DNA from: Candidatus Doudnabacteria bacterium
GTDB taxonomy: Bacteria; Patescibacteriota; Doudnabacteria; UBA920; O2-02-FULL-48-8
Direction: 5' to 3'
NCBI GenBank assembly: GCA_016182875.1
Contig: JACPFQ010000004.1
Location: forward strand, 183,556 to 247,555
Length of the DNA: 64,000 nt
In this document: positions 19,917 to 32,053 of the stretch, in pieces
Layout: every line of letters begins with the position of its first letter
How positions within the stretch are numbered: the first letter of the stretch is position 1
Program-made: the position numbers and the translations under genes
Notes under the pieces: generated by a model
Databases searched by the model: none
What the model was told of the DNA's origin: nothing
Seen by the model: the letters and a program-made list of their open reading frames with translations, nothing else

Positions 19917-20096
19917 CCGACGCGCAAGCGGTCGGGATCCCGACCTCGATGCAATCGAGCGTCGGGATTTTTTCTGTCTGCCTAAGGCTCTTGCATAGGG
20001 GATAATTTCCGTATATACTGTCCAGGCAATTTTGAACCCTCGAAAACGAGGGTTATCTGACCATCTTTGATTTTCAGACTTAAGAGTGGATACTAT

Positions 20097-22958
20097 ATGA
20101 CAGAAAAGATCACCGTCCGCGGCGCCCGGGTCCATAATCTCAAGAACATCAACGTCGATATCCCCAGGAACAAACTCGTGGTCATCACGGGTCTTTCGGG
20201 CAGCGGCAAATCCTCGCTGGCATTCGATACTATATATGCCGAAGGCCAGAGACGCTACGTGGAGTCCCTCTCTGCGTATGCCAGGCAGTTTTTGGGCTTG
20301 ATGGATAAGCCGGACGTGGACAAAATCGAAGGTTTGTCGCCAGCCATCTCCATTGACCAAAAATCCGCTTCGCATAACCCCCGCTCCACGGTCGGCACGG
20401 TTACGGAAATTTATGATTATTTAAGATTGCTGTTTGCCCGGGCAGGCACTCCTCACTGCGCTGTTTGCGGCAAGCAGATCATCGGCCAGTCCGTAACGCA
20501 AATGGTCGACCAGATTGTATCCTGGCCGCAATCAACAAAAATCGTCATTTTGGCGCCAATGGTTAAGGATCAGAAAGGCGAGCACAAGCATTTGTTGGAG
20601 GAGCTTAAGAAGACCGGCTACCAGAGGGTCCGAGTGGACAGTACGATTATGGATATTTCCGAGGCTCTGAATTTGAACATCGATAAGAAAAAGAAGCACA
20701 CCATCGATGTCGTCGTGGACAGGCTCGCTTTGGATTCCGAAGACCGCGCCCGCATTGCCGATTCGCTCGAAACCGCGCTTGATTTGGGCAATGATGCGGT
20801 CATCGTGCAGAAAGGGGGTAATGGGGATAATGGGAGTAAAGGGCAAGAAATATTGTTTTCTGCCAACTTCACTTGCCCCGATGGCCACATGAGTTTACCT
20901 GAGCTTAATCCCAGGAATTTTTCGTTTAATTCTCCGCACGGCGCCTGCCCTGACTGTACGGGACTTGGCACTAGGCTGGAAATCGATCCCGAATTGGTCA
21001 TCCCAAATCAGAAGCTGACTCTGGCTGAAGGAGCGGTCCGGCCGTGGAGCAAGACGACTTCGCGTTTGAGCTGGTATTCGGAAATCTTGGAGGAACTGGC
21101 TGAGCGGTTTGGCAGTTCGGTGCATACGCCGGTGAAGGATTTGCCCAAAAAATTCGTGGACGCGGTGCTGTACGGCTCAGGTTCATTCGAAGGCGTGATC
21201 AACAACCTCATGCGCCGGTACAAGGAAACCGACTCCGATTACATGCGGTCGGAAATTGAGCAGTATATGAGAATTAAAACCTGTCCGACCTGCAAAGGCA
21301 AAAGACTCAAACCCGAATTTTTGGCCGTAACCGTGTTTAATCGCTCCATTGTCGATTTGGCGAATTTGCACATCGACGACGCGCTGGAGTTCTTCGAAAC
21401 GCTCCCCAAAAAACTTTCGGAAAAGGAACAAAAAATCGCCCATCAGATTCTCAAGGAGATTTCCCTTCGGCTTAAATTTTTGCAGGACGTCGGCTTAAAT
21501 TACCTGACCCTCGACCGCTCAGCCGACACGCTTTCCGGGGGCGAAGCGCAAAGAATCCGGCTGGCGACCCAGATTGGTTCCGGCCTGACCGGGGTTTTAT
21601 ACATTCTAGACGAGCCGTCAATCGGGCTTCACCAGCGGGACAACGCCCGGCTGCTCAGAACGCTTAAAAGTTTGCGTGATTTGGGCAATACCGTAATCGT
21701 GGTTGAGCACGACGAGGAAACGATTAATGCTTCGGATTGGGTGGTGGATATCGGTCCCGGAGCCGGCAAGCACGGCGGGCATGTGGTGGCCGAAGGAACC
21801 CCGAAAGAGATTAGCCGGAACAAATCCTCCTTGACCGGCAAGTACTTGGCCGGAATAGAATCAATTCCACTGCCAGAAGCAAGGCGGCCGGGCAGCAGCC
21901 GGACCCTGAAAATTGTCGGCGCGTCCGAGTTTAATTTGAAAGATATAGACGTCGAAGTGCCCCTGGGCAAGTTTGTTTGCTTAACCGGAGTTTCCGGCAG
22001 CGGTAAATCAACTCTGCTCAACGAAATTTTGGCCAAAGCCTTGTCAGCTTATTTTTACAACGCCAAAGAGTCGCCCGGGGCGCATAAGAAAATTCTGGGA
22101 ATCGAAAACATTGATAAAATCATAAATATCGACCAGTCTCCGATTGGACGCACGCCGCGCTCCAACCCCGCCACCTATACCGGCGTCTTTACCTATATCC
22201 GGGATTTGTTTGCCGCCACGCCGGAAGCCAGAATGCGCGGGTACAAAGCAGGGAGGTTCAGCTTCAACGTCAAAGGCGGGCGGTGCGAAGTCTGCGGCGG
22301 TGACGGCGTAATCAAGATTGAAATGCATTTTTTGCCGGATGTCTATGTGGCCTGCGAGGAGTGCAAAGGCAAGCGCTACAACAAAGAGGCGCTGGACATC
22401 CACTATAAAGGCAAAAATATCTCCGATGTTTTGGAGATGACCGTGGATGAAGCGCATGTGTTCTTCCGCAACGTGCCGCTGATTGCCCGCAAGCTGGAAA
22501 CCTTGTCTCTGGTGGGGCTGGGTTATATGCACCTCGGTCAGCAGGCGACCACGCTTTCCGGCGGTGAGGCGCAAAGAATCAAGCTCGCTACCGAACTTTC
22601 CCGCGCCTCGACCGGCAAGACTTTGTATATTTTGGATGAGCCGACCACTGGCTTGCATTTTGAGGATGTAAAAAGGCTTTTGGGGGTACTTAATCGTTTA
22701 GTCGAAAAAGGCAATACAGTTCTTGTGATTGAACACAACCTCGACGTAATCAAGAATGCGGACTGGGTAATTGATTTGGGACCTGAAGGCGGCGACAAGG
22801 GCGGGGAAGTGGTGGCTATCGGCACTCCCGAGGATGTGGCCAAGGTCAAGCGGAGCTACACCGGCCAATACTTAGTAAGGGTTTTGTCCGCCAAAGGCGG
22901 ATCCGCCTCCGGCGGAAAAGAAAAAGAGAAGGTAAAGGAAAAAGTGAGAGTGAAATAG
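20097..22958 (+). CDS. uvrA: excinuclease ABC subunit A
   Basis: Two ABC ATPase modules ([20 protein letters not shown]), zinc-finger CxxC pairs. Confidence 0.95.
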
Positions 22959-23027
22959 TAAAACCCCCGCCGTCGGCGGGGGTTTTTGTTCTTGACAATC
23001 CTTGTCTTATTGATATATCATACTAGC

Positions 23028-23333
23028 ATGTTAGCATACAGCAGTAAAGACAATAGTTGGAAGAATAAGGATACTGATAAGCTATTTGAGGCTATTTTGA
23101 AGCTCAAGACAGTGGCTGAATGCGAAGATTTTTTTCGCGACTTGCTGACTTTGGCCGAACTCAAAGAGTTTGCCAACCGGTTCAAGATGGCTCGCATGCT
23201 TGCTTATACAAGGAAGCCTTATTGGCGTATTGCTAAGGATGCTCATACTACTACGGCAACCGTAACTCGGGTGGCGCATTGGTTAAAACATGGTATGGGA
23301 GGTTACCGTTTGATCTTAAATAGACTTAGGTAA
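23028..23333 (+). CDS. YerC/YecD-like TrpR-family DNA-binding protein
   Basis: ~100 aa; TrpR-like helix-turn-helix (RIAKDAHTTTATVTRVAHWL). Confidence 0.55.
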   Translation: MLAYSSKDNSWKNKDTDKLFEAILKLKTVAECEDFFRDLLTLAELKEFANRFKMARMLAYTRKPYWRIAKDAHTTTATVTRVAHWLKHGMGGYRLILNRLR

Positions 23334-23336
23334 TAG

Positions 23337-23400
23337 ACTGCTTCGCTAATCGCTCGCAGATGCGCCATTTGCGAGGAGGCGAAGCCGACGAAGCAATCTA
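23337..23400. repeat. ~60-bp repeat, inverted copy of 19180..19240
   Basis: Reverse complement of gtgtttagattgcttcgtcggcttcgcctcctcgcaaatggcgcat... Confidence 0.55.
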
Positions 23401-23544
23401 AACACATGCAAAACATTTTTTCTAAACTTAGCCATCATACCAACCCTTTCCCGCTTGGAGAGGTTGGTTAGGTATGCTTTAAGAAAAATTTTTCTTCCCA
23501 ACCCCTGCAAGCCTGCCGGGGTTTTTAATTAAGCTTGATATTTT

Positions 23545-24807
23545 ATGAGAAAAATTCAAATAGGTGTTATGGGATCAATGGCTGATCTAAACTATTCCAA
23601 AGCTACTGAAAAGCTAGCAGAAGAAGTCGGGTTTTGGATTGCTAAAAATGGAGCGGCACTGATTTTTGGGGCGGAAAAAGATGGCGATAGTCTTTCAACA
23701 GCCGCTTGTCGCGGTGCTAAAAAAACTAAAGGCATAACGATCGGTGTAACCTACGCTAAAGGATTGGATGTTTTTGAAAAAAATAATATTGATGTGGTAA
23801 TTGCAACGGGCTTAGAAAGAGGTGGTGGCCGAGAATTGCCACTTGTCTTAAGTTGCGATGCAGTTATTACTTTAAATGGCGGATCAGGAACTCTTACAGA
23901 AGTTGCAATTGCATATCAAGCTAATATTCCCATAGTTGTCCTAAAAGCAACCGGTGGGTGGAGCGGCAGGTTAGCCGGGCAGTATTTAGATGATAGAAAA
24001 CGTATCAAAGCGGAAATTGCTAACAGTCCCAAAGAGGCTGTTCTAAAAGCGTTAGATTTAATTGCACTAAAGCAAGCAAAACAAAAAGATATTTTGGTAC
24101 TGACTGCTGTCCACGGGGACGAATCGATTGGCGTCAGAGCTATGAGAATAATTGATAAGCGAATTCCTGATAACCGTTTTGCTTGGACAATCGCTAACGA
24201 AAAAGCTTTATCTAAAAATCAAAGATTTGTAGATGCCGACCTGAATCGAGCTGCACCAGGCAATAAAAATTCCAAGCAGTATGAAGTTCGCAGAGCATCG
24301 GAACTGTTGAAGTTAGCAAATAATTATCGCTATGTGTTTGATATCCACGGAACAAGTGCCAACTCGGGGATCTTTACGATTGTCACAAATCCGACCCTGG
24401 AAAATTTAGCGTTGGCTTCAATTCTCCCCATAGATAATATTGTTATTTGGATTTCCCAACCCCGAAAAAAATCAGGGCCAATTACCCAGTTTGTTAAGTG
24501 CGGATTGGAAATTGAATGCGGCTTAAAAAATTCACCAAAAACCTTGAAGCAACTAGCTAAAATTTTGGAGGAGATAAACGGTAAGAGTATCGATTATTCG
24601 AATCTTAACCTGAAAGGAAAAAACTTATTCCAAGTTTATGGGAAGCTGATGAAGTCTGAAATTAATAACAAAAATTATAAAAAACTTAAGGACTTCAAAA
24701 AGACTAAAATCAATACAGAGATTTTCTTCCCTCTTTTAGTAGGTCGGTACCTAGGATTAGCCTGTTATAAAATGCGGAAATTGAACCATCGCGACCACCC
24801 TTTATAA
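23545..24807 (+). CDS. fusion protein: N-terminal LOG/SLOG-like Rossmann domain (TIGR00725-like) + C-terminal AstE/AspA (succinylglutamate desuccinylase/aspartoacylase) zinc deacylase domain
   Basis: N-terminus GVMGS...IATGLERGGGRE...NGGSGTLTE; C-terminus HGDESIG, DADLNRAAPG, DIHGT motifs; low GC like backbone. Confidence 0.55.
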   Translation: MRKIQIGVMGSMADLNYSKATEKLAEEVGFWIAKNGAALIFGAEKDGDSLSTAACRGAKKTKGITIGVTYAKGLDVFEKNNIDVVIATGLERGGGRELPLVLSCDAVITLNGGSGTLTEVAIAYQANIPIVVLKATGGWSGRLAGQYLDDRKRIKAEIANSPKEAVLKALDLIALKQAKQKDILVLTAVHGDESIGVRAMRIIDKRIPDNRFAWTIANEKALSKNQRFVDADLNRAAPGNKNSKQYEVRRASELLKLANNYRYVFDIHGTSANSGIFTIVTNPTLENLALASILPIDNIVIWISQPRKKSGPITQFVKCGLEIECGLKNSPKTLKQLAKILEEINGKSIDYSNLNLKGKNLFQVYGKLMKSEINNKNYKKLKDFKKTKINTEIFFPLLVGRYLGLACYKMRKLNHRDHPL

Positions 24808-24847
24808 GAAGAGATTGGTTGTGTTTGGCTTGGTTACTTAACACCTT

Positions 24848-24873
24848 CAATCCCTTCTTAGAAGGGATTTTTT
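24848..24873 (+). terminator. rho-independent terminator
   Basis: aatcccttc tta gaagggatt + T-run. Confidence 0.6.
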
Positions 24874-24907
24874 ATTCTAAGAAATTTATCAAGATTGAGG
24901 AGGAATT

Positions 24908-25618
24908 ATGAAGCGACTCACAGCAGTGTCGACGTTCGTGGATGATGTCCTGCTTAATGAACAGGAACAAGTGCTCGAAGTTCGCGTAGGCGGCCCGGCA
25001 GAATTCTTCCGGCGGGTGTTTGAAAAAACATCACAACCAGTTCAACTGATTACAGGCCGCCGAATGCAAGTCAGGATCAAGGTAGTTCTAGGCATGCCGC
25101 AAGTTGGGAGGGTTGTTGATGCTGGAGACATGCAATCACTACCCCAAATCAACTCACCGAACTTGCTGCTTTCCAGCTTGGCTCGGGAATGGAATGTTCT
25201 GCCCCTGAAGGATTATCTCGGCAGAGTGTTTCTGGATGTCCAAGGTTTCGTTAGGAATCCCAGCGCTGGATTTGGTCGGAAGCAAGTGTGGAGTGAAATC
25301 GAACTAATCGCTTCGAACTTGTTTTGCATCAAGGCCACCGAACTAGAACTTAGATTTCTGCCGCCGTCGTTCGTGCAAGATCAGATCGAGAACCGTTGTC
25401 TTCTGTTGACCAAGGGTCCGCAAGGGTCAGAGATCTTTTTCCGCGGACAGGCCCAGGTCTACGAACCCGAAGAATCACTTAATCCTCCAGATACCTTGGG
25501 GGCCGGTGATACATACCTGGCGACGTTCACCAAGGAATTCATCCAGCACGAAGACTGGCGAGCCGCAGGTTTGGCCGCCAGTCAAGCAGCGTTCCGTTTC
25601 CTCAAAGCGAAAGGATGA
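24908..25618 (+). CDS. PfkB/ribokinase-family carbohydrate or nucleoside kinase (short form)
   Basis: DTLGAGDTYLATF PfkB signature-2-like motif; GGAGG RBS; GC-rich. Confidence 0.55.
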   Translation: MKRLTAVSTFVDDVLLNEQEQVLEVRVGGPAEFFRRVFEKTSQPVQLITGRRMQVRIKVVLGMPQVGRVVDAGDMQSLPQINSPNLLLSSLAREWNVLPLKDYLGRVFLDVQGFVRNPSAGFGRKQVWSEIELIASNLFCIKATELELRFLPPSFVQDQIENRCLLLTKGPQGSEIFFRGQAQVYEPEESLNPPDTLGAGDTYLATFTKEFIQHEDWRAAGLAASQAAFRFLKAKG

Positions 25619-26151
25619 CAGACATGAAAATCAGAGATCTGACAGCAGCCGATCTTATCGGCGTCCGACAGATTTACCGAGAAGCGTTTGCCGGATTTCC
25701 TTGGTTCGAAACGGTGACAGACGCTGAAATCGATTCGAGGTTTAACAGTGTGATGTCAGGGTTGGTCGCGGTCCAGGACAATTCGGTCGTTGGGGCGACC
25801 TGGTGGGAGGTTATAACGATCGAAAAACTCAGACAAGAACGCGGCGAGGAACTGGTCCGATTCGCCAACACGTTTCGAGAAGAACATCTCAAATATGTCT
25901 GGGTAAGGGAAACCATAGTCTTACCGTCGCATCAAGGTCAAGGAATCGGCTTGATGCTCAAACAGGACTCCATCAAGCGCCTTCACGAGGTCTACAAGCC
26001 AGTAATGATTCTGACACGGATGAGAGATGACAACCTGCCTATCATTCGGATTGCAGAACGATGTGGATTCGCTAGGACCGGAATCAAGGTCCCCGATAGC
26101 CAAGTGCTTGTCAATCATGAGTACTGGTATTACAAGGAGGTAAGTCGATGA
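25615..26151 (+). CDS. GNAT-family N-acetyltransferase
   Basis: HQGQGIG acetyl-CoA binding motif; ATGA overlap with upstream gene. Confidence 0.6.
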   Translation: MTDMKIRDLTAADLIGVRQIYREAFAGFPWFETVTDAEIDSRFNSVMSGLVAVQDNSVVGATWWEVITIEKLRQERGEELVRFANTFREEHLKYVWVRETIVLPSHQGQGIGLMLKQDSIKRLHEVYKPVMILTRMRDDNLPIIRIAERCGFARTGIKVPDSQVLVNHEYWYYKEVSR

Positions 26152-27005
26152 AGCCTTTCGTCATTTCTGAAGACGCTGAAACCCTTCTGCATAAGTGGGC
26201 GGAAGTCCGGGGATTCCAGTTACCGAGTCGAGCATTCTTCGCAGGGCTGCTGGATGAGATGGTGGGAATGCTTGAGAAAATCTTTAGCGAGGTGATTCTT
26301 GCTGAAGAGGCAGCCATCAGCAGCCAGCTTGTCCAATGGGTACATGCAAGCGGATTACCAGCGGTTTCGATGGACGGCGTCTATTTTCAATCCGAACACA
26401 CGATTCAAGTCAACCGCGCTGTAGACCAGTTCGGCAACGATATTGGTTTGTTCCCCAGGCCTGGCGCACCATCGCTTTGTGAGCAGTGTCAAGTCATCAA
26501 GGACCGAGAACTGACTGAGATAGTACTCGTCGACGACGTAGTTTTCAGTGGCCACCAAATCGTCTTGGTAATTGAGGGACTTGCCGATCTGAACGTGCGC
26601 GTAGTCAAAGTGCTTGCCGGGATTTCAATTGGGATGGGAGAAACTCTCCTCGCCGAAAAAGGCGTGGACTACGTATCCGTCTACCCTATCCCTGAAGTTG
26701 TAGACGAAATCTGTCAGCGAGACTTTCTGCCTGGAACACCTCGTTGCGGTCGCTACTTGGCAGGCAGTAAGAATACTGGGCTACCGTATTTACTGCCGTT
26801 CGGCAATCCAGGCAAGTGGGCATCTATTCCAGAGAATTGGCAGTTGCCATTTTCTCAATTCTGTATTGATCGCGCGATTCGGGTTTTCGAAGCGATCGAA
26901 AAAGAGTCTGGGAGGGTGGTTCATTGTTTGGATCTGGATAGAAAAGTATTTTCGTTGCCCAAGGACGGTACACGCTTCGTGGATGCACTGCGGCGTTTGC
27001 TCTGA
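26148..27005 (+). CDS. phosphoribosyltransferase (PRTase type I)-like domain protein
   Basis: PRPP-binding-like motif EIVLVDDVVFSGHQI; ATGA overlap with GNAT gene. Confidence 0.45.
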   Translation: MKPFVISEDAETLLHKWAEVRGFQLPSRAFFAGLLDEMVGMLEKIFSEVILAEEAAISSQLVQWVHASGLPAVSMDGVYFQSEHTIQVNRAVDQFGNDIGLFPRPGAPSLCEQCQVIKDRELTEIVLVDDVVFSGHQIVLVIEGLADLNVRVVKVLAGISIGMGETLLAEKGVDYVSVYPIPEVVDEICQRDFLPGTPRCGRYLAGSKNTGLPYLLPFGNPGKWASIPENWQLPFSQFCIDRAIRVFEAIEKESGRVVHCLDLDRKVFSLPKDGTRFVDALRRLL

Positions 27006-27221
27006 TGGGTGAGGCCATGATTCGGCAACGAGTCCTCTGGCCCTTTTTATTTGCTTAGGCCTTGACCCCGTTAGAAATAAGACGCCAACGGTGTCTGCCG
27101 ATACGCAAGTATTGGATTTCTAACGGGGTTGACATTTTAGTTTTTCTGGTATCTCAAATGAGCGTACCATAAAAGTATACAGAAATTCGTGGTTTAGGTT
27201 CCCAAAAAGGAGGGTAAAGCC

Positions 27222-27923
27222 GTGCCACGAGAGGATCGCATGTTCGGTGATTTCTACGTTGCGCCAGCCAGGAGCGTTCGGCGCGTGACCATTCGAGTGC
27301 TTGTCGGCAGTTTCTGGCTTCTGCTGTTCGTTGCATTTGGTTATAGTCGGGCAGTGGCGATTGACAGTCTGCCAAGGGTGGACACGATGATGAAGATCGT
27401 GCTGCCATCCGCGCCCCCGCCCCCGCCACCAGCTCCGGTCCCGCCCAAGAATCAGCCGGAGCGGCCAGTGGTCAGCAAGCCGGACTTTCCGGTAGAGCCG
27501 CCGACCGGCATTCCGCCCGAGCCGCCGTTCGATGTTCCAAGCGTTCGGAACATTCCCGGTGTCATCGACGGAGTTCCTCCCGGCGAGATTCCGGACTTCG
27601 TTCCTCCGCCACCGCCTCCGCCGCCCAAGCCGGTAGAACCCGTACCGGTCGGAGGCAACATCAGGCCGCCACAGCGGCTTGAGCACGTTCCTCCTGAGTA
27701 CCCGGCTATCGCTCGGACGGCACGGGTGCAGGGAATCGTGATCATCCAAGCCACGATCAACGAGACGGGTCGGGTAGTAGAGGTCGAGGTCCTTCGGTCG
27801 ATCCCGCTTCTTGATCAGGCAGCACTTGACGCGGTACGGCAATGGCGCTATACACCAACGCTACTCAACGGTAAACCGGTGCCCGTCATCACGACGGTCA
27901 CGGTGCAGTTCACCCTGCAGTAG
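27222..27923 (+). CDS. TonB C-terminal domain protein (proline-rich periplasmic spanner + TonB_C)
   Basis: N-terminal TM, PPPPPP linker, C-terminus ...VQGIVIIQATINETGRV...RYTPTLLNGKPV; GTG start after AAGGAGGG RBS; ~62% GC. Confidence 0.7.
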   Translation: MPREDRMFGDFYVAPARSVRRVTIRVLVGSFWLLLFVAFGYSRAVAIDSLPRVDTMMKIVLPSAPPPPPPAPVPPKNQPERPVVSKPDFPVEPPTGIPPEPPFDVPSVRNIPGVIDGVPPGEIPDFVPPPPPPPPKPVEPVPVGGNIRPPQRLEHVPPEYPAIARTARVQGIVIIQATINETGRVVEVEVLRSIPLLDQAALDAVRQWRYTPTLLNGKPVPVITTVTVQFTLQ

Positions 27924-28191: not shown

Positions 28192-28211
28192 CTAATGTTT
28201 AAGTGCTAACT

Positions 28212-28943
28212 ATGGATACTCGCAAACAGAGGATTTTAGCAGCAATCGTCAAAGAATACTCCGAAACGGCAAATCCTGTGGGCTCCAAGGAACTGGTAGA
28301 CAGGTATAATTTCACGGAAAGCCCTGCCACCATCCGCAACGAAATGGCTGATTTGGAGAAAGATGGCTATATCTTTCAGCCGCATAAATCCGCCGGCCGC
28401 GTCCCCACAGACAAAGGCTATCGGTTTTTCGTCAACGAATTAATGCGCCGGTTTGAATTATCAGAAAAAGAACGCCGGATGCTTAAACACGAACTCCTGA
28501 AATTGCAGGTTCAACAGGAACAGCTGGGACGTTCCATCTCGAATTTACTGTCCCAGGTTTCAGGCCAAGCCGCGTTCGCGCTTCTGCCCAATCAATCCTC
28601 GGCCACCGGGCTTTCGCAAATTATAGGCGAGCCGGAGTTTGCGGATTCCAAGCAAATGAAGCAAGTAGCCCAGTTGCTTGAGCATATTGATGAGCACGCC
28701 AGCAAATTAATTAAAAAATCAGAGATAACAGCAGAAGCGTTTATCGGGAGCGAAGCCAAGTTCCCGGTGCCCAAGAATTTAAGTCTGGTGGTTTCCAATG
28801 TCAAAATGAAAGACGGCAAGAAAGGCGTCATCGGCATCATCGGCCCCAAGCGCATGGCCTATGCCAAGAATTTGTCCATCATTAATTATTTAGCGAAATT
28901 AATAAGCGGCGCTGCAGTGATAATTTTGATAATTAAAATATAA
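28212..28943 (+). CDS. hrcA: heat-inducible transcriptional repressor HrcA (short form)
   Basis: N-terminal winged-HTH region (RQRxIL..IV..Y..T..PVGSK.L) and operon with grpE-dnaK. Confidence 0.8.
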   Translation: MDTRKQRILAAIVKEYSETANPVGSKELVDRYNFTESPATIRNEMADLEKDGYIFQPHKSAGRVPTDKGYRFFVNELMRRFELSEKERRMLKHELLKLQVQQEQLGRSISNLLSQVSGQAAFALLPNQSSATGLSQIIGEPEFADSKQMKQVAQLLEHIDEHASKLIKKSEITAEAFIGSEAKFPVPKNLSLVVSNVKMKDGKKGVIGIIGPKRMAYAKNLSIINYLAKLISGAAVIILIIKI

Positions 28944-28988
28944 AAATTATGAGCAGACTGCCAATTAATATTGTTGGATTACAGTAAT

Positions 28989-29046
28989 TGTCATCCTGAG
29001 CGAAGCGAAGGATCTCATGAGATTCTTCACTGCGTTCAGAATGACA
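28989..29046. repeat. palindromic element (tgtcatcctgagcgaagcgaaggatctc / gagattc...gcgttcagaatgaca)
   Basis: Variant of the GCGAAGCGAAG palindromic family; supplies the spurious N-terminal codons of the grpE ORF. Confidence 0.55.
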
Positions 29047-29550
29047 AACACGAATATGTCAGACGAGAATAATCAAACCCAGGAAGCTACAGTTGAGGAA
29101 CTGCAGGCTAAGAACGAAGAATTTTTGAATAACTGGAAGCGCGTAGCGGCGGACTTGGAAAACTTCCGCAAACGCCGCGAAGCGGAGAATAAGGAATTGC
29201 TGGAATTCGCCAAGGAAATGGCGGCAATCAAGCTTCTGCCTTCCCTGCAAAGTCTGGAACAGGTCTTGAAGTTCGCGCCGAATGATGAGAAGTACAAAGG
29301 CTGGCTCGACGGCCTCAAAGCTACGATCTTGCAGCTCGAGAAGGCCATGGAAGAGCTGGGCTTGAAAAAAATCAACACGGTCGGCGAGAATTTCGACCAC
29401 GAACTGCACGAAGCCGTGGAAGAAGCGGAAGGAGAAGACGGTAAAGTTTTAAAAGAATTGCAACCGGGTTTTATGCTGCATAACAAAGTAATCATCCCGG
29501 CCAAGGTCGTGGTCGGAAAAAAGTTAAGCGATTCGAATATAGCGAATTGA
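29041..29550 (+). CDS. grpE: nucleotide exchange factor GrpE
   Basis: GrpE coiled-coil plus C-terminal beta domain similarity; start uncertain (29041 or 29056). Confidence 0.85.
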   Translation: MTNTNMSDENNQTQEATVEELQAKNEEFLNNWKRVAADLENFRKRREAENKELLEFAKEMAAIKLLPSLQSLEQVLKFAPNDEKYKGWLDGLKATILQLEKAMEELGLKKINTVGENFDHELHEAVEEAEGEDGKVLKELQPGFMLHNKVIIPAKVVVGKKLSDSNIAN

Positions 29551-29624
29551 CATGCGAAAGATGCGAATCGATTCGTGTCATTCGAATGTCCAATTCGTGG
29601 CTTCGTATCGCTGAAGGAGTAATT

Positions 29625-30035
29625 ATGACACATTTAGTAAGATGGACACCTTTTCGAGAGCTTGAGAAAGCCTTTGAAGATGACTTCTTCTCAATTGCTA
29701 CTCGAATTCATTCGCCTGCGGTTAATCTCTACGAAACGGAGAACGAAGTCGTGGCTGAGGTTTCCATTCCCGGGATCGATCCAAAAAAGGTAAGTGTGGA
29801 AATCGAGAATAACGTGCTTCATATCCGCGGCGAGGAGTCGTCGGAGCAAGAGGATAAAGGCAGAGACTATTACCGGAAAGAAATAAGGTCTGGAATGTTC
29901 GGCCGCTCGATCGGACTGCCGACTGAAGTCGACGCCGATAAGGTTAAGGCGACCTCGCAAAACGGGATCCTAAAGATCGTCATGCCCAAGAGCGAAAAGT
30001 CAAAGCCCAAGCGGGTGGATGTCGAGGTAAAGTAA
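29625..30035 (+). CDS. Hsp20/alpha-crystallin family small heat-shock protein
   Basis: Alpha-crystallin domain (...AEVSIPGIDPKKVSVE...GILKIVMPK); AAGGAG RBS. Confidence 0.8.
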   Translation: MTHLVRWTPFRELEKAFEDDFFSIATRIHSPAVNLYETENEVVAEVSIPGIDPKKVSVEIENNVLHIRGEESSEQEDKGRDYYRKEIRSGMFGRSIGLPTEVDADKVKATSQNGILKIVMPKSEKSKPKRVDVEVK

Positions 30036-30042
30036 GAATTAT

Positions 30043-30131
30043 TGTCTTTGCGAGCGAAGCGAAGCAATCTCATCCCGAGAAAAGAGATTGCTTCGTCGAC
30101 CGGCAATTCGCCGGTCTCCTCGCAAAGACAG
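30043..30131. repeat. 89-bp nested palindromic element in the dnaK 5' region
   Basis: tgtctttgcgag|cgaagcgaagcaatctc...gagattgcttcg|tcgaccggcaattcgccggtc|tcctcgcaaagacag, three nested stems. Confidence 0.6.
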
Positions 30132-30199
30132 CTTGATGAGTCTACGAAAAAGGTTCGCAGATTCGTTTAGCTAAATAATCACGAAAGGACAAAACAAGC

Positions 30200-32053
30200 A
30201 TGGCAAATAAAATAATCGGCATTGATTTGGGAACATCAAACAGTGCAGCGTCGGTAATGGAAGCAGGCAGCGCGGTGATCATCCCTTCTGCCGAAGGGCA
30301 AACCGCATCGGGCAAGGCGTTCCCGTCTTACGTGGCCTTCTCCAAAGACGGCCAGCTTCTGGTTGGCGAACCGGCGAGGAGACAGGCAGTGACCAACCCC
30401 GAAGGCACGGCGTTTGAATTCAAGCGCAAGATGGGCACCACTCAAAAGTTCACTTTGCAGGGGAAAGAATACACACCGGAACAGCTTTCGGCTTTCTTGC
30501 TTCAAAAAATCAAGAAGGACGCCGAGGCTTATTTGGGGCAGCCAGTGGCCAAAGCCGTGATTACGGTGCCGGCTTACTTTGATGATAGCCAGAGGCTGGC
30601 CACCAAGAACGCCGGGGAAATCGCGGGACTGGAAGTGGTGCGCGTGATAAACGAGCCGACAGCCGCGGCGTTTGCCTATGGCATCGACAAAAGCCACCAG
30701 GAGCAGAAAATTCTGGTGTTTGATTTGGGCGGCGGCACGCTTGATGTGACGATCATGGACTTTGGCGAGGAAAAAGGCCAGGCGACATTTGAGGTGCTTT
30801 CGACCTCAGGCGATACGCAGCTTGGCGGCAAAGACATGGATGCGGCTCTAATCAACTTCGTAGCGGAAGAGTTTAAACGGGAAACTGGAATTGATTTGAA
30901 TTCCGACAAAATGGCCATGAATCGCGTGCGCGAAGCCGTGGAAAAAGCCAAAATCGAGCTTTCGACTGTTTTGGAAACTGATCTTAACTTGCCGTTTATT
31001 TCGGCTGACGCGGCTGGTCCCAAGCATCTGAACATGAAAATCACCCGCGCCAAGCTTGAGGAGCTGGTCAAACCCATCATCGAGCGCATGAAGCAGCCGG
31101 TATCGACAGCACTTTCTGACGCCAAGCTGACTCCTCCGCAGATTGGCAAGATTATTTTGGTCGGCGGTCCCACCAGGATGCCGATTGTCCAGAAATTCGT
31201 GGAAGAGTTCATTGGCAAGCAGGTGGAGCGCGGGGTCGACCCCATGGAAGCCGTGGCCAAAGGAGCGGCTATTCAGGCGGGGGTTTTGTCAGGCGATGTT
31301 TCTGGAAAAGAAATTTTATTGCTTGACGTCACTCCATTGACCTTGGGCCTGGAAACTCTGGGCAGTGTGGCTACGCCGTTGATTGACCGCAACACCACCA
31401 TTCCCACTTCCAAATCGCAAGTTTTTTCCACTGCGGCGGACAACCAGACCTCGGTTGAGATTCATGTGGTCCAGGGCGAGCGGCCTATGGCGGCGGACAA
31501 CAAATCTCTGGGCAGATTTCATCTTGACGGCATTCCGCCGGCGCCAAGGGGGGTGCCGCAGGTCGAAGTCACGTTCGATATTGACGCCAACGGCATTCTG
31601 CATGTGACGGCAAAAGACAAGGCGACGAGCAAGTCGCAGAAGATCAGCATCACCGGCTCAAGCAATCTTTCCAAAGATGAAATCGAAAAGATGAAGAAGG
31701 AAGCCGAGATGCACGCCGAAGAGGATCGCAAGCGCAAAGAGACTATAGATATGAGAAATCAGGCTGACACGTTGATTGCGGTTTCCGAACGGACGCTCAA
31801 AGACGCCGGTGATAAGGTAATAGAAGCTGACCGCAAGGCCGTGAATGAAAAAATCGACGCGCTTAAAGCCGCAAAGGGTGAAGACGATGTCGCGGCCATA
31901 AGGAAAGGGATGGACGAACTTTCGGCTGCCATTCAAAAAGTAGGGGCGGCTATGTACCAGAGTCAGAAAACAGATAACAGCAAGCAGGAAACAGGTAAGA
32001 GCCAACAAGGGCCGGTGGATGCTGAATTCAAAGACGTGAGTGATAAAAAGTGA
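30200..32053 (+). CDS. dnaK: molecular chaperone DnaK (Hsp70)
   Basis: [18 protein letters not shown], full Hsp70 length. Confidence 0.95.

Follow-up and report, generated by a model that had tools for sequence, protein, structure and literature searches.

YerC, or HisR, is a repressor of the TrpR family that requires histidine for binding to the 20-bp palindrome cacTTTAnnnnnnTAAAgtg, with the co-repressor role of histidine demonstrated only for R. gnavus HisR, and Firmicutes possess in addition His-leader attenuators in which leader peptides with runs of His codons are followed by a terminator (PMC9413887). A gene of this regulator family and predicted attenuators of this kind stand ahead of quite different genes in the DNA analyzed here, a stretch of 64,000 nucleotides from Candidatus Doudnabacteria bacterium (contig JACPFQ010000004.1, positions 183,556 to 247,555; hereafter the window). 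At positions 23028-27005, all on the plus strand, it carries a unit of five genes, encoding a HisR-family regulator, a fusion of a SLOG cluster 4 (SLOG4) domain with an AstE/AspA-type deacylase, a small PfkB-family kinase (mini-PfkB), a GNAT acetyltransferase and a PRT-like protein (PRTL), besides two leader/attenuator elements. A sequence-only reading of this region had recognized the four open reading frames (ORFs) downstream of the regulator gene, and their coordinates, domains, motifs, overlaps and internal terminator were all confirmed. Three things had escaped it: the regulator, the lineage variability of the accessory genes and, as the chief pointer to function, the connection with histidine. 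We consider it very probable that the operon is a conserved functional unit, and probable that histidine starvation controls it. With more reserve, and at slightly less than an even chance, we propose that it acts as a single histidine-starvation-responsive unit with a HisG-like PRTL, a SLOG4 hydrolase and AstE/GNAT acyl handling.

The regulator gene (23028-23333, ATG at 23028, 101 amino acids) matches the YerC/YecD family TIGR02531 with 82.2 bits against a cut-off of 42.2, and a phmmer comparison of its TrpR-like product with the PDB retrieved 3frw (E 1.4e-15) and E. eligens HisR, 3g1c (E 2.1e-14). Just beyond the uvrA terminator (22960-22986) lies its putative sigma-70-like promoter (22992-23021; TTGACA, 18 nt, TATCAT), recognized by consensus matches only (11 of 12). 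For the survey of relatives, one genome per GTDB species was scanned with the PRTL alignment and the returned loci were scanned with custom profile HMMs; since the loci were collected with PRTL, the fusion protein or HisG as starting point, counts of co-occurrence are free of bias only when read from one of these three. Labels such as L001 denote the resulting loci of relatives. A YerC/HisR-family gene lies ahead of the SLOG4 gene in 17 of 49 loci. The sequence CTTTA-N6-TAAAG occurs 19 times in the 748 kb of all fetched loci against 1.84 sites expected, and 17 of the 19 sites fall 13-51 nt 5' of the regulator gene (13) or directly of SLOG4 (4). A clade whose recognition helix reads SPRT, not SSTT, carries another palindrome, and the window regulator has a third, divergent variant (HTTTATVTRVA). 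Most Patescibacteria loci share the regulator family and the operator consensus cacTTTAnnnnnnTAAAgtg with the Firmicutes HisR regulon. Their targets, in contrast, are not his biosynthesis or transport genes, and in one clade it is the regulator ORF that carries the His codons, in an extension at its C-terminal end.

Such extensions, with HH or HHH placed 9-15 codons before the stop codon, are present in L001, L003, L012, L014, L004 and L008, where the regulator ends, for instance, in HHSNPLLAEKVLG (L001), HHHNSISFGKGLR (L003), HHHNSLPVGKGLR (L012) or HHTNSIPIGKGLR (L014), each followed by a stop codon. Hairpins come after these tails, and in the five Doudnabacteria-type loci (L001, L003, L004, L012, L014) a terminator is found close to the next gene; the regions with tail and attenuator are L001:7806-8003, L003:7836-8003, L012:6909-7003, L014:6811-7003 and, in the window, 23334-23544. 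The window counterpart of the tails is a homologous mini-ORF at 23406-23471 (MQNIFSKLSHHTNPFPLGEVG and stop; His codons 23433-23438), which is in frame with the regulator ORF but separate from it. The two are cut apart by TAA TAG and an insert of ~70 nt with a strong hairpin (23340-23385). Translation of the mini-ORF is presumed, with no clear Shine-Dalgarno sequence to be seen. Downstream of it, the predicted intrinsic terminator of attenuator 1 (23497-23526; CCAACCCC...GGGGTT and a U-run) ends 19 nt before the start codon of the fusion gene, and its 5' arm can pair instead with the leader at 23457-23468. The sequence between the regulator and fusion genes gives a much more stable fold than its shuffled versions (z = -4.05). 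When folding was constrained by a ribosome stalled at the His codons, the antiterminator was favored, while a ribosome at the stop codon, or none at all, favored the terminator; this predicted switch was reproduced in four of five loci (the window, L001, L012 and L014), with pairing partners that differ between loci in a compensatory manner. Judging from these sequences, the regulator's own His-rich tail appears to serve as the attenuator leader peptide for the downstream gene.

The same principle may be used a second time at the end of the fusion gene. Its ORF closes with N-H-R-D-H-P-L and stop (His codons 24787-24789 and 24796-24798), and the ORFs of the closest relatives end in IHHNHPL directly before the stop codon or run through IHHHNHPL; FHHHRF and stop is a further ending among relatives. 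Next to the stop codon of the fusion ORF, the element AAGAAGAGATTGG (24806-24818) can base-pair with the 5' arm of a terminator-like hairpin (24849-24869) that is followed by a U-run (24870-24875), so that the predicted attenuator 2 spans 24806-24875; L001 and L004 have both kept the element GAAGAGATTGGTTGTG and the hairpin between the corresponding genes. Folding under the constraint of a ribosome stalled at CAC 24796 gave the antiterminator, and with a ribosome at the stop codon the terminator, from which we infer a putative attenuator function. An Rfam search of 22900-27300, at E up to 5, returned only chance-level leader matches and neither a His leader nor another family.

Histidine-linked elements accompany the same core genes in low-GC gut Bacilli, which contribute 16 PRTL loci. 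Wherever upstream sequence was available (15 of 15 Bacilli loci), the order PRTL > SLOG4, often followed by hisS, comes after a leader peptide rich in His (for example MLKNLFTVNHHHNNLHLLIRH and stop) and a conserved array of hairpins and terminator. The leader lies ~200 nt 5' of the PRTL gene (L039-L054, alignment A2; for example L040:7568-7790), and its ribosome-binding site, the peptide end HHHN(N/S)LHLLIRH before the stop codon and the invariant hairpin GCACTTGT...ACAAGTGC are conserved, with a few compensatory changes in the terminator. This attenuator has no Rfam entry, and Rfam detected no T-box before the PRTL gene in eight Bacilli loci. Furthermore, in 14 of 15 Bacilli species the PRTL gene itself is split at U-AUC-CCC-CAU (Tyr-Pro-His; UAUCCCCAUUGU), where a +1 shift is needed (examples among L039-L054 are L040:7985-8075 and L044:7830-7870). 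In most loci the 0 frame runs into a stop codon after 5-7 codons, with none seen within the stretch read in L039, and the +1 frame supplies the remaining ~220 amino acids, PIV(S/T)LDKIY and onwards, that is, the conserved protein body; L041 has a contiguous gene and needs no frameshift. If scarce His-tRNA triggers a +1 frameshift, a slippery CCC-C in the P site and a His codon waiting beside it in the A site are to be expected, and the sequence therefore suggests a candidate programmed +1 frameshift induced by histidine starvation.

Neighboring genes point in the same direction. Together with the regulator, hisS is the most frequent neighbor (17 of 49 loci, in 12 of them co-oriented within 300 nt, and in several gene orders); the 64-kb window itself holds no hisS, hisG, hisI or hutH. 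A locus of a thermosome-encoding archaeon (L057:5376-8450) shows an Asp/Glu-racemase-family gene, a HAD-SLOG4 fusion and hisS in overlapping succession and without a PRTL gene, so that the link between SLOG4 and hisS crosses domains of life. In Uhrbacteria (L036) a bona fide hutH lies directly upstream of SLOG4, in an operon that also has two HAD phosphatases, an uncharacterized 324-aa protein, a PRTL gene and a GNAT gene. More broadly, other lineages have neighbors with histidine or amino acids as substrates, namely HutH, a deacylase of the M20 ArgE/DapE type, peptidases and the Asp/Glu-racemase-family gene.

The slot behind the regulator is in some genomes occupied by genuine enzymes of histidine biosynthesis. 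In genomes syntenic with L001 and L003 it holds PfkB-SLOG4 together with HisG (L012) or a fusion of phosphoribosyl-AMP cyclohydrolase (PRA-CH) with SLOG4 (L014). A distinct Patescibacteria HisG clade shows the orders regulator > PRA-CH > HisG and regulator > HisA/F-like > PRA-CH > HisG > RibD, a fusion of PRA-CH with HisG that is preceded by an HHH leader peptide (L059), and regulator > SLOG4 > PRA-CH > HisG (L070). These pairs of HisG and PRA-CH behind a HisR-like gene (L058:6586-7894, L059:4314-7762, L061:5687-9306, L062:7232-10420, L070:202-2859) are apparently isolated; RibD follows in three loci, and a HisA/F-like gene precedes in one and SLOG4 in one. HisG was never found together with a PRTL gene, whereas SLOG4 accompanies either. 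PRTL is comparable to HisG in that it shares its regulated slot with genuine HisG/HisI in sister genomes and would be a transferase, presumably dependent on phosphoribosyl pyrophosphate (PRPP), under strict histidine-dependent control. The PRA-CH-SLOG4 fusion has the layout of bifunctional HisIE with SLOG4 in place of the phosphoribosyl-ATP pyrophosphohydrolase (PRA-PH) domain. However, HisG, the ATP phosphoribosyltransferase that with HisIE carries out the first steps of histidine biosynthesis, is classed as a type IV phosphoribosyltransferase (PRTase), while PRTL has the type I PRTase fold and no counterpart of the C-terminal domain by which HisG binds histidine; there is no relationship between SLOG4 and the MazG-like HisE; and the AstE, GNAT and PfkB partners have no counterpart in the HisG/HisIE pathway.

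What holds the loci together is the pair of SLOG4 and PRTL. SLOG4 is in the same locus for 37 of 40 true PRTL loci among GTDB species representatives, which come from Patescibacteria as well as from reduced gut Bacilli. Amid unrelated flanking genes, the succession regulator > SLOG4-AstE > [PfkB] > GNAT > PRTL, with PfkB not always included, is met repeatedly, and variants such as regulator > AstE > SLOG4 > PRTL in Microgenomates and AstE > SLOG4 > PfkB > PRTL in Paceibacteria are also found. GNAT and AstE are absent from most loci. The constant core is SLOG4 with PRTL, while AstE, PfkB and GNAT, and HAD phosphatases in other lineages, are lineage-variable accessories. A search for the fusion architecture elsewhere recovered SLOG4-AstE in ~35 protein clusters, and other fusions join further members: GNAT-PRTL (P0170), SLOG4-PfkB, PfkB-SLOG4, HAD-SLOG4 and PRA-CH-SLOG4. 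The earlier proposal of one pathway that combines N-glycosidic-bond chemistry with acyl transfer and deacylation is backed by those of SLOG4-AstE, GNAT-PRTL and, in both orders, SLOG4 and PfkB.

The fusion protein (23545-24807, 420 amino acids) consists, as had been read from its sequence, of a LOG/SLOG-type half and an AstE/AspA-type deacylase half. Residues 1-172 (23545-24060) form the SLOG4 domain, with PF18306 matching residues 3-165 (E 1.6e-29, 102.9 bits against a gathering score of 26.3). This domain stays below the equivalog cut-offs of TIGR00725 (72.5 bits against 106.9), TIGR00730 and LOG (NF058542, 21.8 against 300). An AlphaFold2 model (mean predicted local distance difference test score 89.6) was compared with solved structures by Foldseek: closest to the SLOG4 half were TM1055 (1rcu) and molybdenum cofactor (Moco) carrier proteins, with target-normalised TM-scores of 0.79-0.87, followed by LOG enzymes. 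With LOG/PpnN and the Moco carrier proteins it shares the Rossmann-like SLOG fold, a conserved arginine and the phosphate-binding/catalytic motif GGxGTxxE, present here as G112-G-S-G-T-L-T-E119. It differs from LOG/PpnN by its own invariant motifs, GAEKDxDSLS and RGGGRE. Throughout 29 fusion proteins, G112-G-S-G-T-L117, E119, R92-G-G-G-R-E97 (and with it R96) and G42-A-E-K-D46 are invariant. Since Moco carrier proteins, its closest structural relatives, bind their ligand and are not known as catalysts, a hydrolase activity of SLOG4 can only be presumed.

The AstE domain (residues 179-420, 24079-24807) is matched by PF24827 over residues 180-327 (E 7e-15, 55.5 bits against a gathering score of 25), and in the Foldseek comparison the C-terminal half resembled human aspartoacylase, aminoacylase 3 and AstE, with E values as low as 3e-12. 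Both HGDESIG and DIHGT can be read in the sequence. Like aspartoacylase, aminoacylase 3 and succinylglutamate desuccinylase, the domain has the H-x-x-E...H zinc ligands (H190, E193, H268) and a catalytic glutamate (E322/E324), all invariant in the 29 fusion proteins together with R227, N234 and R235; unlike the aspartoacylase family it is shorter (~245 amino acids) and fused to SLOG4, and it misses the equivalog cut-offs of aspartoacylase (67 bits against 180) and AstE (22 against 306). Given the invariance of the catalytic motifs across the 29 homologs, both halves of the fusion look catalytically intact at the sequence level. The human aspartoacylase counterparts of R227, N234 and R235 are taken here to hold the substrate carbonyl and alpha-carboxylate, so that the AstE-domain substrate is probably an N-acyl alpha-amino acid; the aspartoacylase arginine R168, which contacts the side-chain carboxylate, is seemingly not conserved, as placed roughly and not by a computed alignment. 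Pairing of AstE with a GNAT acetyltransferase resembles the NAT8L-ASPA-type cycle of N-acetyl-amino-acid synthesis and hydrolysis; in animals the N-acetyl-aspartate cycle couples GNAT-type synthesis with deacylation. L004, which also carries a SLOG4-AstE fusion, has a second, stand-alone AstE/AspA-family gene (L004:6369-7298), divergently oriented and upstream of the HisR-like gene.

The remaining three genes follow a strong Shine-Dalgarno sequence (GAGGAGG) and overlap by 4 nt at 25615-25618 and 26148-26151. Mini-PfkB (24908-25618) has 236 amino acids instead of the usual ~300, and PF00294 (28.0 bits against 25.8) covers only its C-terminal residues 163-228, that is, 66 residues. The catalytic/anion-hole motif DTxGAGD is retained as DTLGAGDTY, and kept in P0038, P0090, L003 and L006. 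The protein belongs to the same family as SLOG4-fused PfkB domains (P0038, 36% identity, 1e-52; P0090, 43%, 1e-61), and its best solved relative is 3w4s/4xf6, a small archaeal PfkB-family kinase of 273 amino acids (E 7e-6). The PfkB domain assigned earlier stands, but the reading as a sugar/nucleoside kinase is not specific, for this truncated PfkB is nearest to 3w4s and scores at most 24 bits with the ribokinase, adenosine kinase and nucleoside kinase equivalogs of NCBIfam, whose cut-offs are 216-521. The GNAT protein (25615-26151, 178 amino acids) is identified by PF00583 (E 4.7e-7, 30.5 bits against 20.7) and the acetyl-CoA motif QGQGIG; a member of the same family is fused N-terminally to PRTL in P0170 (44% identity, 1e-44).

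PRTL (26148-27005, 285 amino acids) reaches neither PF00156 (17.0 bits against 26.3) nor the PRTase-CE family PF24390 (16.5 against 27). It has the core fold of a type I PRTase, with only ~125 of its 285 residues superposing and ~160 being family-specific. Its PRPP-binding loop reads V-L-V-D129-D130-V-V-F-S-G135, in which D129, D130 and G135 are invariant in 42 homologs. The core fold and this acidic loop, VLVDDVVFSG, are shared with the adenine, xanthine, orotate and uracil PRTases (APRT, XPRT, OPRT, UPRT). In contrast to these, PRTL is enlarged by additional helices at its N-terminus and by a conserved stretch of ~100 residues at its C-terminus (DEVCERDF...PYxLPFG...WASIP), and it misses every salvage-PRTase equivalog cut-off (~19 bits against 146-200).

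Taken together, regulation of this conserved operon, as its sequence would have it, is built around the availability of histidine and His-tRNA, and the mechanism that we propose follows from there. When His-tRNA is short, PRTL would transfer ribose-5-phosphate from PRPP onto a ring nitrogen, a tightly gated, PRPP-consuming step that corresponds to HisG's role in ordinary histidine synthesis. SLOG4 would hydrolyze the N-ribosyl-5'-phosphate bond in the PRTL product or a later intermediate and return ribose-5-phosphate; AstE would take an N-acyl group off an alpha-amino acid and GNAT put one on, with histidine as the most plausible candidate; and mini-PfkB would phosphorylate a sugar or riboside. 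The net purpose would be to obtain more histidine, either by a non-canonical start of its synthesis or by salvage via ribotide or N-acyl intermediates. Gating in several layers fits a committed and costly step. Nonetheless, we put forward the HisG-like role of PRTL as a possibility of which we are far from convinced, and any specific substrate named for the enzymes of the operon is doubtful at best. We can conceive, on a somewhat firmer though still tentative footing, that PRTL and SLOG4 form a new enzyme pair for histidine supply in genome-reduced symbionts, either as a non-homologous replacement of HisG/HisE or in a new route via phosphoribosylated and N-acetylated compounds of the histidine type, gated by devices that read the charging of His-tRNA directly, among them the regulator's His-rich tail as attenuator leader and the programmed +1 frameshift; the pair is found in Patescibacteria and reduced gut Bacilli, and SLOG4 also in the thermosome-bearing archaeon.

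Several observations weigh against this proposal. No HisR-type operator was found in the window, either by pattern search or by eye. Its His signals are weaker than those of the relatives, amounting to two adjacent His codons in the leader and H-x-x-H at the end of the fusion protein, and no ribosome-binding site can be clearly made out before the leader ORF. The models of the attenuators come from folding predictions, and constrained folding of L003 showed no switch. Because Firmicutes keep the gene order apt-relA-dtd-hisS, the adjacency of hisS in Bacilli could be partly inherited gene order. HutH degrades histidine and, in the one operon concerned, fits induction by starvation poorly. Neither the Pfam scan of the HisG/HisI genes nor the precomputed annotations of those loci contained a HisE domain, which makes even the HisG-type cassettes incomplete. 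No later his-biosynthesis genes were seen near any PRTL locus, with no scan aimed at hisA-hisD made, and Patescibacteria are usually regarded as amino-acid auxotrophs. Finally, a purely HisG-like model does not explain why AstE and GNAT are fused to SLOG4 and PRTL; these fusions fit better with a metabolite that has both amino-acid and ribose-phosphate parts.

Such a metabolite is at the heart of the strongest rival explanation, according to which GNAT and PRTL make an N-alpha-acetylated, ring-N-phosphoribosylated histidine, SLOG4-AstE reverses both modifications and mini-PfkB re-phosphorylates the riboside; histidine, acetate and ribose-5-phosphate would be released, and the cycle would serve to capture, retain or buffer an amino acid in short supply. 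That the transferases are fused together (P0170), as are the hydrolases, does suggest one doubly modified metabolite, and the cycle accounts for these fusions better than our main proposal. The retention of R227, N234 and R235 by AstE, the HutH, M20 ArgE/DapE-type deacylase, peptidase and Asp/Glu-racemase-family neighbors elsewhere, and reports of N-ribosylhistidine from untargeted metabolomics studies are all in line with it. However, a histidine-consuming enzyme that is made only under scarcity, as the attenuators and the His-hungry frameshift would have it, is hard to rationalize; HisG/HisI in the PRTL slot and the PRA-CH-SLOG4 fusion are left unexplained; and GNAT and AstE are missing from most loci, so that we deem this conjugate cycle unlikely. 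A storage version, with the transferases active at plentiful histidine, was rejected, as attenuator 2 and the frameshift point to starvation induction of the transferases too. Alternatively, the operon could provision ribose-5-phosphate and PRPP, with SLOG4 as a LOG/PpnN-type nucleosidase, mini-PfkB as a ribo-/nucleoside kinase and PRTL re-salvaging the base, and would then feed PRPP-dependent reactions in cells that have no other source of pentose phosphate. This draws on the LOG-type fold and motif of SLOG4, on its fusions to PfkB (in both orders) and to HAD enzymes, and on its company with both PRPP users, HisG and PRTL; E. coli PpnN provides a precedent for nucleotide breakdown upon amino-acid starvation. 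It leaves unexplained the histidine-specific control as well as AstE and GNAT, a base-salvage PRTase beside a nucleoside monophosphate nucleosidase would create a futile cycle, and PRTL fails all salvage-PRTase equivalog cut-offs, which together render provisioning distinctly improbable.

It is more improbable still, in our view, that PRTL makes a PRPP-derived signaling nucleotide or base that SLOG4 degrades or matures, by a logic like that of RelA/SpoT or IPT/LOG. A core of transferase and hydrolase gated by ribosome stalling at His codons would suit such a starvation signal, LOG enzymes do release signaling bases (cytokinins), and a role of SLOG domains in the processing of nucleotide signals was predicted by Aravind and co-workers (cited in PMC7159879). 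Yet no receptor or effector gene is associated with the loci, and the accessories (deacylases, phosphatases, kinases, HutH, HisG/HisI) look metabolic. Moreover, we know of no earlier case of a signal that is specific to one amino acid. The sequence-only reading had drawn a connection with nucleotide-signal conflict systems, here taken as an anti-phage or inter-genomic conflict system with a SLOG sensor and a PRTase effector; little speaks for it beyond a weak PADLOC match of PRTL to PRTase_III-A (E 0.05) and the variation of slot gene content between sister genomes. No PADLOC match of the four proteins is significant (three have hits to 0 families), no relatives of PRTL or the fusion protein occur among 2.9 million viral contigs (IMG/VR), each locus has one copy among housekeeping genes (uvrA, secA, hisS, dnaK), and the synteny is conserved and the regulation histidine-specific. 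Such a system is effectively excluded, and so, with the lowest probability of all, is a chance adjacency of purine-salvage genes (adenosine kinase, APRT) and an unrelated fusion gene. The latter could be argued from the terminator between the fusion gene and the three genes downstream and by their difference in GC content, which is real (0.39 against 0.49-0.52, and at third codon positions 0.34 against 0.53-0.56). The fortuitous association read from it is not, because the same offset recurs in relatives L003 and L001, whose overall GC differs, and is thus a property of the fusion gene rather than the mark of a chance junction; the offset might stem from expression level or from different origins of the two modules. 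In addition, the neighborhood is kept across many lineages with different flanks and its components are linked by fusions. Neither were the three GC-rich genes ever found as a plain purine-salvage set without SLOG4, and ordinary purine salvage was rejected for equivalog scores far below the cut-offs.

The enzyme folds and regulatory principles discussed here have been described before, but the same cannot be said of their combination, of the core pair or of its wiring to histidine; searchable papers yielded nothing relevant on a SLOG4/PRTL module, on the function of PF18306/TIGR00725, on PRTase-CE or on LOG with hisS or histidine starvation, nor anything on HisR in phyla other than those treated in PMC9413887. 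For their amino acids, Patescibacteria and reduced gut Bacilli are generally regarded as dependent on their hosts, and the operon suggests a missing piece in how they obtain or manage histidine. It also offers a testable function for two large uncharacterized families, the SLOG4/TIGR00725-like proteins and a 285-aa PRTase-like family without a Pfam model, and would extend the HisR regulon far beyond Firmicutes. Three regulatory elements, namely the putative repressor-tail leader attenuator, the conserved His attenuator of Bacilli and the candidate amino-acid-sensing +1 frameshift, would be new as well. If it is true that PRTL stands in for HisG, then a new non-orthologous displacement would have occurred at the committed step of a textbook pathway.

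Two further families of ~320 amino acids, U1 and U2, are encoded mostly between SLOG4 and PRTL and next to HAD phosphatases (L036:5415-6386, L038:5178-6185, L035:4246-5211, L024:9608-10567; L022:6188-7150, L031:3671-4615); in L024 the U1 gene lies instead downstream on the opposite strand. Neither family matched Pfam, NCBIfam or the PDB sequences. In the window, uvrA (20067-22958) is directly upstream of the regulator gene, and directly 3' of the operon a gene of unusually high GC (0.62; 27222-27923) encodes a protein that is rich in proline and carries a TonB C-terminal domain (E 9e-22). It is followed, at 28203-32053 on the same strand, by a heat-shock cluster with hrcA, grpE, an Hsp20-family gene and dnaK, as identified by reading of the translations; uvrA and the genes of this cluster look like ordinary housekeeping genes.

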